Below are positions 15,788 to 18,623 of a DNA stretch of 64,000 nucleotides, in pieces. Source of the stretch: Escherichia coli (lineage in GTDB: Bacteria; Pseudomonadota; Gammaproteobacteria; Enterobacterales; Enterobacteriaceae); NCBI RefSeq assembly GCF_048403405.1, contig NZ_CP183129.1; one strand, written 5' to 3'. Made by a program: the position numbers and the translations under genes. The first letter of the stretch is position 1. Every line of letters begins with the position of its first letter. A model generated the notes under the pieces. That model was not told the DNA's origin. It worked only from the letters and a program-made list of their open reading frames with translations, and searched no databases.

Positions 15788-17089
15788 TTACATTAGCCCT
15801 AGTAGCTGTGGAATGAACAAGGATATTTGCGGGATGTAAGTGATCATCATCAACGCGATTAACAATGCGGCATAAAATGGCAGCAATGGTTTGATCAAAT
15901 GTTGAATCTTCACACCTGAAATAGAACAACCAACAAATAGCGCACTACCCACCGGCGGTGTTAACAGCCCAATACAAAGGTTGGCCACCATCATAATACC
16001 GAAATGTACCGGATCCATTCCCAGCTCTTGTGCAATCGGCAAGAAGATTGGTGTGAAGATTAGTACAGCCGGTGTCATGTCCATAAAGATGCCGACAATT
16101 AATAAGACGATATTAATCAGCAGCAATATGATCAGTGGGTTATCAGAAATCCCCATCAACGCGTCGCTGATCATATAAGGAATATCAGCATTGGTCATTG
16201 ACCAGGACATGCCCACGGAAAAACCGATCAACAGTAATACAATCGAAGTGGTAACAACCGATTCCAGAATCAGTTTGGGTAAATCGCGCCATTTTACTTC
16301 CCGGTAAATCAGCACCGAGAGAATAAATGTGTAGACAACGGCAATCGCAGACGCTTCAGTTGCGGTAAAAATGCCGCCCAGAATGCCGCCCATTACAATG
16401 AACACCAGAAGCAAACTTGGTAAGGCATCCAGAAACGCTTTACAGGCCTGAGCAAAGGTTGCTCTTTCTGAAAGTGGGTAGCCACGGCGTTTAGCAATAA
16501 TGCCGCAGACTATCATTACCGCAAGACCCATTAAGATCCCTGGCAAATATCCCGCCATAAATAGCGATGCTACAGAAACGCCGCCAGCTGTCAGGGAAAA
16601 CACAATTAACACGTTTGAGGGCGGTATCAGTAATCCAGTAATACAGGATGAGACGTTTACAGCGGTAGAAAATGCCGGATCATAACCTTGTTTGGTCTGA
16701 ATGGGATTCAGTGTGCCACCAACGGCAGCAGCTGCCGCAACGGCTGAACCAGAAATGGAACCAAACATCATATTCGCCAGGACGTTCACATGACCAAGTG
16801 AACCAGGAACGCGGCCAACCATTACCTGGGCGAGGTTAATCAAACGTATCGCAATACCGCCGCTGTTCATCAGCGTTCCGGCAAAGATGAAAAAGGGGAT
16901 TGCCAATAGGGCAAAGTTATCCAGTCCATTAGCCAGTCGCTGCGAAACAGTGATTGCCGCGATATCCCAGGGAAACATCAACAGCATTGAAGCTACAGTG
17001 GCAATACCGATTGAGAACGAAATGGGCACACCAATAAAGACCAGCACAAAAAAACAGCCAAATAGTGTAAGCGCAATATAACTATCCAT
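15788..17089 (-). CDS. TRAP transporter large permease subunit (DctM family)
   Basis: 433-aa polytopic membrane protein of typical DctM size; start overlaps the dctQ-like stop (ATGA). Not the K-12 YiaN. Confidence 0.85.
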   Translation of the reverse strand: MDSYIALTLFGCFFVLVFIGVPISFSIGIATVASMLLMFPWDIAAITVSQRLANGLDNFALLAIPFFIFAGTLMNSGGIAIRLINLAQVMVGRVPGSLGHVNVLANMMFGSISGSAVAAAAAVGGTLNPIQTKQGYDPAFSTAVNVSSCITGLLIPPSNVLIVFSLTAGGVSVASLFMAGYLPGILMGLAVMIVCGIIAKRRGYPLSERATFAQACKAFLDALPSLLLVFIVMGGILGGIFTATEASAIAVVYTFILSVLIYREVKWRDLPKLILESVVTTSIVLLLIGFSVGMSWSMTNADIPYMISDALMGISDNPLIILLLINIVLLIVGIFMDMTPAVLIFTPIFLPIAQELGMDPVHFGIMMVANLCIGLLTPPVGSALFVGCSISGVKIQHLIKPLLPFYAALLIALMMITYIPQISLFIPQLLGLM

Positions 17090-17601
17090 TAACTGGCCTC
17101 CTGCGCAGGTTGTTTCAGTTGTTGAATGCTTTGATTAATAAAACACAAGGCATAAAACATCATCACCACTCCACTTAATGGCAGAATGATATATACGTAT
17201 CCCATCGGTATTTGCATCGCGGCAGATACTTGTGATGTTGCCAGCGTTTTATCAATTAATTTCAGGCCACCAGTCACAATGACCGAACCGGCAAAACCTA
17301 AAATGAGAATGTTAATGACTATACTAAGAAGTAATTGCTTGCGCTTATTCAGGGCGAGAGCAAATAAATCGATAGAGAGATGTCTCTGCGCGCCGACGGT
17401 ATATGCAGCACCTAATAATCCTACCCAGATCATCAAAAAGCGTGCCAGCTCATCGGTTAATGTACTTGGCTGGTTAAGTACGTAGCGGCTAAATACTTGC
17501 CAGACTACGCATACAACCAGAGCAAGCATTACGGCGACAGAAAACGCGGCAATGACGCGGTCTACCGCAAGTTTCAGGCGGTTAAATATCATTGTAAGCA
17601 T
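17089..17601 (-). CDS. TRAP transporter small permease subunit (DctQ family)
   Basis: 170-aa, four predicted TM helices, operon position between the P and M subunits. Confidence 0.8.
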   Translation of the reverse strand: MLTMIFNRLKLAVDRVIAAFSVAVMLALVVCVVWQVFSRYVLNQPSTLTDELARFLMIWVGLLGAAYTVGAQRHLSIDLFALALNKRKQLLLSIVINILILGFAGSVIVTGGLKLIDKTLATSQVSAAMQIPMGYVYIILPLSGVVMMFYALCFINQSIQQLKQPAQEAS

Positions 17602-17636
17602 CCTGGAAAATCAGGGCCAGAGACTGGCCCGAAATA

Positions 17637-18623
17637 TTATTGAGCAGCGTTGTCGAATTTCTCTAACAAAGCAGCTTGTTTTGGATCTTTTTTGAAGTCG
17701 TCAAACAGAGGTTGAACTGCGGCACGGAATGGGGCTTTATCAACCTTAACGATTTCACCACCCATAGCTTTCGCTTGAGCACGTGTGTCAGCGTCAATTT
17801 TTTCCCACAATTTTTGTTGATAAGCTTCGGATTTCTTCGCCGCTGTTTCGAGGATTTGTTGCTGTTCTGGGGTTAATTTATTCCATGTTTTGGTGGAGAT
17901 AACCAAAAAGTCAGGAATTGAGGCATGTTCATCTTCAGAAAAGACTTTGGCAATTTCGATATGTCGAGTCTGCACCCAGGAAGGCACGTTATTTTCTGCG
18001 CCATCTACTACACCTTGCTGCATCGCAGTATAAACTTCGCCAAATGAAATTGGAGTGGGTGAGCCACCCATCAGTTCAATCATTTTGATGGTGGTCGGGC
18101 TTGGCTGAACACGAATTTTCAGCCCTTTAAGATCTTCTGGCTTAGTAATCGGTTTTTTCGCATAGAAACTGCGTGTACCCGCTACATAAGCTGATAAAGC
18201 AAAAAAGCCTTTATCTTTTGTTGAATCCATAATTTCTTTACCAACTTCACCAAAAACCACTTTGTTGAAGTGCGCCTGATCTTTAAATAAGAACGGCAAA
18301 TTATAGATAGCATAAATATTATCAAAAGACTCCAGATCACTGGCGGAACCTTTGGTCATATCCAGTGCACCATTTTGCAACAACTCCATAGTTTCTCGCG
18401 CATTACCCATCTGGCTGCTGGGGTAAATACGGATCACCATATTACCTTTTGACAGCTGTTTTACTTCTTTCGCCAGCTTTTCAAAACTCTGATGTACAAC
18501 ATGACTTCTTTCCAGGTTGTGTGCTAACTTTAACGTCACTTTTTCTGCGGCGTTTACGCCAGTGCTAACCAGAGCCAGCAAGGATGCGCAGACTAATGAG
18601 CGGGTAAATGACCTCATTTTCAT
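17637..18623 (-). CDS. TRAP transporter periplasmic solute-binding subunit (DctP family)
   Basis: 328-aa with signal peptide (…LALVSTGVNAAE); first gene of the P-Q-M operon; distinct from YiaO. Confidence 0.82.
   Translation of the reverse strand: MKMRSFTRSLVCASLLALVSTGVNAAEKVTLKLAHNLERSHVVHQSFEKLAKEVKQLSKGNMVIRIYPSSQMGNARETMELLQNGALDMTKGSASDLESFDNIYAIYNLPFLFKDQAHFNKVVFGEVGKEIMDSTKDKGFFALSAYVAGTRSFYAKKPITKPEDLKGLKIRVQPSPTTIKMIELMGGSPTPISFGEVYTAMQQGVVDGAENNVPSWVQTRHIEIAKVFSEDEHASIPDFLVISTKTWNKLTPEQQQILETAAKKSEAYQQKLWEKIDADTRAQAKAMGGEIVKVDKAPFRAAVQPLFDDFKKDPKQAALLEKFDNAAQ

Follow-up and report, generated by a model that had tools for sequence, protein, structure and literature searches.

A three-gene operon, dctP-dctQ-dctM, separates hemW from yggM in a 64,000-nucleotide stretch of Escherichia coli DNA (contig NZ_CP183129.1; hereafter, the window), and its coordinates and those of the surrounding features are collected in Table 1. 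[quoted passage not shown] DctP scored 286 bits against TIGR00787 (cut-off 175) and 256 bits against NF037995 (cut-off 50), DctM scored 473 bits against TIGR00786 (cut-off 268), and DctQ matched Pfam PF04290 at 1.5e-30. The binding protein, the DctQ and the DctM of a DctP-type TRAP transporter are all present. A Sec-type signal peptide, ending at VNA/AE around residue 25, can be read in the N-terminal sequence of DctP, and R171 occupies the position of the arginine that recognizes the substrate carboxylate in this transporter family (SiaP R147, STM3169 R170). This arginine is unchanged in 13 of 13 orthologues and aligns with the arginine of 4ovr, 4n15 and 4mhf. The genes are ordered P-Q-M on one strand, and the dctM start codon and the dctQ stop codon overlap by 1 nt, suggesting that the translation of dctQ and dctM is coupled. 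In the RefSeq annotation of strain TUM14771, the Prokaryotic Genome Annotation Pipeline (PGAP) starts dctQ 9 nt later, at 17592. All three window ORFs are intact, with a coding sequence 100% identical to that of TUM14771, which lacks the insertion sequence (IS) described below, and the locus reads as an intact three-gene DctP-type TRAP uptake system. RefSeq annotates the operon with generic TRAP transporter subunit names, and our literature search on this locus returned no paper specific to it; earlier predictions of the ExuR/UxuR regulon may list such TRAP genes. The operon is an uncharacterised member of a known transporter family, a generically annotated accessory transporter.

The operon is flanked by trmB-yggL-yggN-ansB-yggM on one side and by hemW-rdgB-yggU-yggT-yggS on the other. 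The adjacency of yggM and hemW in K-12, as given in the original prediction, is confirmed in MG1655, where the operon is missing and a 154-bp spacer containing repetitive extragenic palindromic (REP) sequence separates the two genes. Similarity to K-12 ends at the yggM stop codon (15732) and restarts at the hemW stop codon (19715), and our search for operon remnants in the K-12 yggM-hemW spacer found REP sequence only. This empty site (4405-4558 in K-12 locus coordinates) consists of REP elements and varies in length among strains, with matches of about 366, 456 or 541 bp. The window system was also rightly distinguished from the K-12 YiaMNO transporter. The YiaM model NF007374 gave 38 bits against a cut-off of 260 and the YiaN model NF011634 gave 296 bits against a cut-off of 800, and with scores so far under the cut-offs the operon is not YiaMNO. 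Likewise, the ORF list contains no regulator or catabolic enzyme gene in the interval, as had been stated; an IS1 element located there had gone unreported.

The original prediction further held that the substrate could not be guessed. Our analyses point the other way, as homology to hexuronate binders, the uxaCBA/exuR context of close relatives and exu/uxu-like operators all indicate hexuronates. The best PDB matches to DctP, with E-values from 4e-68 to 1e-59, were 4ovr, 4n15/4n17, 4ln5, 4mhf/4mij, 4x8r, 4n91 and 4n8y. The top eight sequence matches fall in this group, as do the top eleven Foldseek matches of an AlphaFold model (predicted local distance difference test, pLDDT, 67), where these entries again rank first. 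Beyond 4N91 and 4MHF, we take these entries to be hexuronate complexes as well. The sialic acid-binding SiaP (about 1e-40) and the C4-dicarboxylate-binding DctP (about 1e-32) are far weaker matches, in a range of 1e-31 to 1e-40. The best matches include Bamb_6123 (4N15), Bpro_3107 (4MHF) and Apre_1383 (4N91). Apre_1383 binds D-glucuronate, Bpro_3107 binds both D-glucuronate and D-galacturonate, and Bamb_6123 was the template for the D-glucuronate-binding STM3169 of Salmonella, with a Kd of 0.17-0.25 uM (PMC7660916). The ligand of STM3169 is contacted by seven residues (N35, Q36, E74, R150, R170, N210 and D237), which we mapped onto DctP using the offset in numbering and an alignment with Bpro_3107 and Bamb_6123. 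Five of them correspond to the conserved N36, R151, R171, N211 and D238 of DctP.

The strongest evidence on the substrate is provided by the genomic context of two relatives. In Pantoea sp. IMH and Aeromonas rivuli, DctPQM homologues (59-60% identity for P and 75% for M) lie between a divergent uxaC-uxaB-uxaA-like operon and exuR, at the position where K-12 has exuT. In these clusters, the cut-offs of the models for glucuronate isomerase, tagaturonate reductase and ExuR are all exceeded. None of the invariant pocket candidates, Leu37 included, differs between these homologues and the window DctP; at position 75 they have a proline. The association with hexuronate catabolism is thus found in the Pantoea and Aeromonas homologues and not in E. 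coli itself, and the gene neighbourhoods in Buttiauxella, Edwardsiella and Enterobacillus gave no substrate clue. Based on these comparisons, the predicted substrate is most likely an aldohexuronate, D-glucuronate and/or D-galacturonate.

The control region of dctP suggests a link to the same pathway. We constructed a position weight matrix (PWM) from four pattern-chosen sites of the K-12 exu regulon: two precede uxaB, one precedes exuR and one lies in the spacer between exuT and uxaC. Its best match in the window is box 1 at 18701, with 16.4 bits compared with 12.4 for the runner-up, and the TRAP-less K-12 locus reaches a maximum of 9.7. In the leave-one-out analysis, box 1 scored 13.3-17.5 and the held-out K-12 sites 11.5-17.4. 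Box 1 is kept at -94 to -99 in the syntenic genera, and of the 18 orthologous loci scanned, most keep the boxes in position. The box 1 consensus of the other genera, AAAGATGTCAGACAAC, to which the window box 1 is nearly identical, is found letter for letter upstream of K-12 uxaB, where it forms a site outside the training set. Upstream of K-12 uxaB, AAAGATGTCAGACAACTTC (K-12 locus coordinates 4901-4919) is an untrained exu-type palindrome nearly identical to this consensus. Box 1 is overlapped by a UxuR-type motif, GGTTAACCAATTT, which is common to the E. coli dctP spacer and the K-12 gntP-uxuA spacer, and UxuR binds the latter (PMC5934670). Reverse-complemented, the box 2 core of the other genera, TGTCATACA, gives the core of the K-12 exuT/uxaC site. 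The non-syntenic loci of Buttiauxella, Edwardsiella and Enterobacillus have box 2 as well, at about -64 to -88, and Mangrovibacter has a weaker, second-rank match. Given that box 2 is kept where the operon occupies unrelated loci, it fits a trans-acting regulator encoded elsewhere. The Pantoea and Aeromonas homologues have an exu-type palindrome about 112 nt upstream of dctP. The window operators therefore resemble exu/uxu sites, as measured against training sites picked by pattern, and since such tandem FadR-type operators recall the exu/uxu regulon, the operon is probably repressed by ExuR (and/or UxuR) and induced by hexuronates.

A terminator hairpin closes hemW, so that a separate promoter is expected for dctPQM. 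The hairpin in the dctP-dctQ gap likely acts as an attenuator between the cistrons or stabilises the mRNA, either of which would raise P relative to Q and M. Where yggM and dctM converge, the hairpin probably terminates transcription in both directions.

Table 1. Features of the hemW-yggM interval in window coordinates.
Feature	Coordinates	Strand	Description	Basis
dctP	17637-18623	minus	periplasmic substrate-binding subunit, 328 aa	ORF; TIGR00787
dctQ	17089-17601	minus	small membrane subunit, 170 aa	ORF; Pfam PF04290
dctM	15788-17089	minus	large membrane subunit, 433 aa	ORF; TIGR00786
Proximal dctP control region	18624-18790	minus	intact despite IS1	footprint of 18 spacers
Box 1	18701-18719	minus	ExuR-type FadR-family palindrome CAAGTTGTCAGACAGGTTA, about 96 nt upstream of the dctP ATG	
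Box 2	18684-18694	minus	TGT-N3-ACA palindrome TTGTCGCACAA, about 75 nt upstream of the ATG	pattern scan
Conserved block	18650-18664		AGATATCAACCAATT	footprint of 18 hemW-dctP spacers
TGTGA	18730-18734		possible CRP half-site	footprint of 18 spacers
Conserved block	18766-18775		GCGCACAAAA	footprint of 18 spacers
Hairpin in the dctP-dctQ gap (35 nt)	17614-17630	minus	G+C-rich; 7-bp stem, 6 GC pairs	terminator-like scan
Hairpin between convergent yggM and dctM	15748-15780		13-bp stem	terminator-like scan
IS1	18791-19558	minus	intact, 768 bp; insA and insB' oriented like dctP	NF033558 matches both ORFs
Distal hemW-dctP spacer	19568-19714	minus	beyond IS1; very A+T-rich tract and hemW terminator hairpin (19687-19712)	

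Elsewhere in the window, Rfam models identify 6S RNA (ssrS; 63466-63649, minus strand), a Sib antitoxin RNA (62667-62817, minus) and a tRNA gene (3857-3929, minus), all ordinary for the region.

Our comparison across genomes covered one genome per species for the relatives and 5426 complete genomes for E. coli. DctP relatives with 81-93% identity are found in many Enterobacteriaceae, and the order of the window, yggS-yggT-yggU-rdgB-hemW / dctP-dctQ-dctM / (yggM)(ansB)-yggN-yggL-trmB, recurs in Citrobacter amalonaticus, C. braakii and C. sedlakii, in Kluyvera, Pseudocitrobacter, Pluralibacter, Phytobacter and an Escherichia sp., and in Klebsiella pneumoniae, K. oxytoca, K. grimontii, K. michiganensis, K. 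indica and K. spallanzanii. In Salmonella enterica, a minority of genomes has the identical hemW-dctPQM-yggM-ansB arrangement. The presence/absence polymorphism at hemW-yggM is accordingly common to Salmonella as well, where it is separate from the STM3169 locus. At the nucleotide level, dctPQM of the window is 72-82% identical to that of Citrobacter, Kluyvera or Klebsiella, and the flanking core genes are 77-92% identical. In the comparison with C. amalonaticus, the ratio of nonsynonymous to synonymous substitutions (dN/dS) is about 0.02 for dctP and 0.03 for hemW and rdgB, the intergeneric dS being saturated and on its own unable to tell vertical from ancient lateral descent. The G+C content at third codon positions (GC3) of the transporter genes tracks the host, from 39-48 in E. 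coli through 55-70 in K. pneumoniae to 70-81 in Edwardsiella. Within E. coli, the operon occurs in 1476-1489 of the 5426 genomes, essentially always on the chromosome and with alleles 94-100% identical, and the K-12-type empty site in 3910 (about 72%), so that the two states together cover nearly all genomes. The carriers include ST131 JJ1886 (99.3%) and O111:H8 (97.6%). Such cross-genus synteny, flank-like divergence and host-tracking GC3 argue for an ancestral operon lost by K-12; the parsimonious reading is that it was ancestral at this site in the Escherichia-Salmonella-Citrobacter-Klebsiella-Kluyvera group, with K-12 representing a deletion state. The absence from the K-12 yggM-hemW site noted in the original prediction thus stands, while the insertion that it implied does not, in view of the synteny in at least seven genera and some Salmonella.

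At the 3' end of hemW (19715-19915), the window and K-12 agree at 80% of the last 100 nt and at 85% of the 100 nt before them; the differences are all synonymous and leave the protein tail identical. Every TRAP-positive E. coli examined carries the window-type last 100 nt, and the TRAP-positive strain UTME-12 turns K-12-type further into hemW, which places a recombination breakpoint inside the gene. Given this divergence and the link of the hemW-end variant to the operon, the presence/absence haplotypes are very old, their age far exceeding that of the diversity usual in E. coli, and recombination has broken them within hemW. Public contigs among the GTDB representatives, labelled Collinsella sp., Bacillota bacterium and Alicyclobacillaceae bacterium, encode proteins 98-100% identical to the E. 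coli hemW-dctPQM products, and these three assemblies almost certainly contain E. coli contamination.

The IS1 element is located 168 bp upstream of the dctP start codon. It has the expected length and both insA and insB', inverted ends of 23 bp (18791-18813 and 19536-19558), and a 9-bp target duplication, GTACATGTT, at 18782-18790 and 19559-19567. Its exact junction occurs in 2 of the 5426 E. coli genomes, MS 69-1 and B19695, and no other genome matches the whole region at 100% in a single piece. The insertion is therefore recent, and the window derives from the lineage of these two strains. All conserved dctP control blocks are located between IS1 and dctP, and the element probably leaves basal control intact. 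It does part the promoter from the distal spacer with its very A+T-rich tract, and transcripts reading through from an IS1 promoter could be added. A rewiring of expression is a possibility, for example by this parting of the promoter from the A+T-rich DNA, in the manner of bgl activation. At 19545-19573 on the plus strand, a sigma-70-like site (TTGGCA, 17-nt spacer, TATAAT; 11 of 12 positions, a consensus match only) takes its -35 element from the IS1 end and its -10 element from the flanking DNA, and points antisense into the hemW terminator and 3' end. Independent IS1 insertions are found in other strains, in yggM (GN25, Ecol_276), in dctM (UTME-12, O6:H16 M9682-C1), in dctP (2014C-3011; CUVET20-PYO4, with a deletion) and elsewhere in the spacer (AREA_492), and some of those in unrelated strains create pseudogenes. 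This A+T-rich locus is a hot spot for IS1; in some strains the operon is in decay, and under some conditions it is evidently dispensable.

Taken together, we consider it probable that the operon encodes an ancestral, high-affinity TRAP importer of D-glucuronate and D-galacturonate under the control of ExuR/UxuR. DctP would be exported to the periplasm and bind the hexuronate through Arg171, which would hold the carboxylate, together with Arg151 and Asn211, these roles being assigned by homology. The loaded DctP would then dock on DctQM for import driven by an ion gradient, by analogy with the solved SiaPQM systems (PMC9352664, PMC9971032). Once imported, the hexuronate would be converted by UxaC and then by UxuAB or UxaBA to 2-keto-3-deoxygluconate, along the hexuronate pathway established in E. 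coli (PMC5934670). The transporter may thereby act as a high-affinity scavenger alongside the core permease ExuT. Its expression would start from its own control region downstream of the hemW terminator, where ExuR/UxuR encoded elsewhere would repress and hexuronates relieve the repression.

Several points weigh against this assignment. The identity of DctP to the solved hexuronate binders is 36-39%, so that the structural relatives, taken alone, are suggestive, and the AlphaFold model, built from a 13-sequence alignment, drops below pLDDT 50 in the ligand-binding segments and is uninformative on the pocket. The full contact set of STM3169 is not retained: Gln36 and Glu74 are replaced by Leu37 and Ala75, and the pocket may therefore prefer a different sugar acid. 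With regard to regulation, the PWM training sites were picked by pattern and not footprinted, the sigma-70 scan upstream of dctP gave nothing at threshold and identified no core hexamers, and further regulators of the FadR family, DgoR and LldR among them, share the TGT-N3-ACA core (PMC4494728). In addition, loss in most E. coli and IS1 hits in several strains suggest that the benefit of the operon is conditional. Another possibility would be a working TRAP importer for some other sugar acid or carboxylate, such as a keto-deoxy or unsaturated uronate, fructuronate/tagaturonate or a hexonate, perhaps controlled by another FadR-family regulator; we regard it as the less probable explanation but a serious contender. 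It would account for the replacement of the Glu and Gln through which STM3169 and Apre_1383 form hydrogen bonds with glucuronate, for the distance to the crystallised binders, and for the generic operator core. In Mangrovibacter, moreover, the operon adjoins a lyase-like protein, with a weak oligoalginate-lyase match, and a Na+/solute symporter. However, the 59-60% identical homologues with the same pocket candidates lie in uxaCBA/exuR clusters, the operator flanks match the K-12 uxaB, exuT and uxuA sites beyond the core, and among solved structures the closest relatives are all of the hexuronate group. It is conceivable, though rather unlikely, that the Ala75/Leu37 pocket, which is common to the whole enterobacterial subfamily, shifts the ligand preference and has a fitness role in lineages of the ST131 type or of the Shiga toxin-producing E. 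coli (STEC) type. A true C4-dicarboxylate DctPQM, for succinate, fumarate or malate, has only the family name and the generic 'DctP' annotation in its favour and is scarcely credible: the C4-dicarboxylate chains 9dsy, 9dtl and 9ht3 match at 1e-31 to 1e-33, compared with 1e-59 to 1e-68 for the hexuronate group, and the window ORFs include no DctBD-type two-component system nearby.

The history of the locus allows two further readings. The operon could be a silent or decaying remnant that is useless in this strain, for instance because IS1 has cut off upstream activating DNA. Its absence from 3910 of 5426 genomes, the independent IS1 disruptions of dctM, dctP or yggM, the IS1 so close to dctP in the window, and an E. 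coli GC3 about 10 points under that of the flanking genes are all compatible with decay. Nevertheless, we find this unlikely, as the three ORFs are intact and unchanged relative to an IS-free strain, the dN/dS of about 0.02 indicates long-term purifying selection, every conserved control block remains between IS1 and dctP, and successful lineages such as ST131 and O111:H8 retain the operon. The other reading, that this lineage gained the operon horizontally as an islet inserted between yggM and hemW, would explain the lack of the operon in K-12, the A+T-richer composition of the segment relative to its flanks (39-49% GC), the unusual divergence of the last 100-200 nt of hemW from K-12, and the adjacent IS1. 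It is largely refuted and very improbable. The same gene order occurs in at least seven other genera and some Salmonella, the operon has diverged as far as its flanking genes, its GC3 has been ameliorated to that of the respective host, and the IS1 junction is found in 2 genomes compared with about 1480 for the operon. Nor did the interval yield an integrase, a tRNA or a flanking repeat, its sole direct repeat being the 9-bp duplication of IS1. Lineage restriction, mobility genes or repeats, and flank-unlike divergence, the marks of such an islet, are therefore not what the locus displays, and "extra relative to K-12" can equal "lost by K-12".

If the prediction of a hexuronate importer is true, about a quarter of E. 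coli genomes would possess a second, binding-protein-dependent route of hexuronate uptake that is absent from the K-12 model. Glucuronate and galacturonate are abundant carbon sources in the gut, released from glucuronides and pectin, and STM3169, the Salmonella paralogue, is a reported virulence factor that contributes to fitness in macrophages. The operon is thus a candidate for strain-level differences in nutrient niche. Should the pocket instead have an altered preference, the system would be a lineage-variable, high-affinity scavenger of a host- or microbiota-derived sugar acid, and its retention in ST131 and O111:H8-type STEC, as opposed to its loss in K-12 and most E. coli, would affect fitness in the gut or urinary tract. 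Apart from that, it is an ordinary accessory transporter.

Several known systems bear comparison with the window operon. YiaMNO, the 2,3-diketo-L-gulonate transporter and only TRAP system of K-12, belongs to the same transporter superfamily, but its locus and gene order differ from those of the window operon and its equivalog models are not reached. ExuT, a hexuronate/H+ symporter of the major facilitator superfamily, shares the predicted substrates and regulon, but is an unrelated single-component permease without a binding protein and a core gene of E. coli. The GaaPQM system of Agrobacterium tumefaciens is a galacturonate TRAP transporter, genetically assigned to hexuronate uptake (Zhao and Binns 2016, cited in PMC5812351). 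It is alphaproteobacterial and linked to virulence-gene signalling. The proteins solved by the Enzyme Function Initiative (EFI; 4N15/4N17, 4MHF/4MIJ, 4N91 and Xaut 4OVR) are the best sequence and fold matches and share the Arg/Arg/Asn ligand triad, but have a Glu in GSEKDT where the window DctP has an Ala in GNARET, and a Glu in place of the window Asp at position 238. The uncharacterised DctPQM of Pantoea sp. IMH and Aeromonas rivuli agrees with the window DctP at the HNL/HVVHQ/RE/R151/R171/NN/D238 positions. There the operon is part of a gene cluster for hexuronate catabolism, in which it is divergent from uxaC and precedes exuR, whereas in E. coli these genes and the regulators are encoded elsewhere.

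A further close system is STM3169-STM3171 of Salmonella Typhimurium LT2, a D-glucuronate TRAP transporter (Herman et al. 2020, PMC7660916). It is likewise an enterobacterial P-Q-M system with no adjacent catabolic or regulatory gene, and its binding protein is related to the same EFI structures, 4N15, 4MHF and 4N91, as the window DctP. The residues R170, R150, N210 and D237 of STM3169 correspond to R171, R151, N211 and D238. On the other hand, binding has been shown for STM3169, whereas for the window DctP it is predicted. STM3169 also occupies a different chromosomal locus, and its ligand residues Gln36 and Glu74 are Leu37 and Ala75 in the window protein. Given these differences in locus and in two pocket residues, the window DctP is not considered an orthologue of STM3169. 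Since the Salmonella carriers have the true orthologue at hemW-yggM, the STM3169 system and the window operon appear to be paralogous lineages. For both of them a role as a high-affinity partner of ExuT has been proposed, in Salmonella for STM3169 and here for the operon between hemW and yggM.

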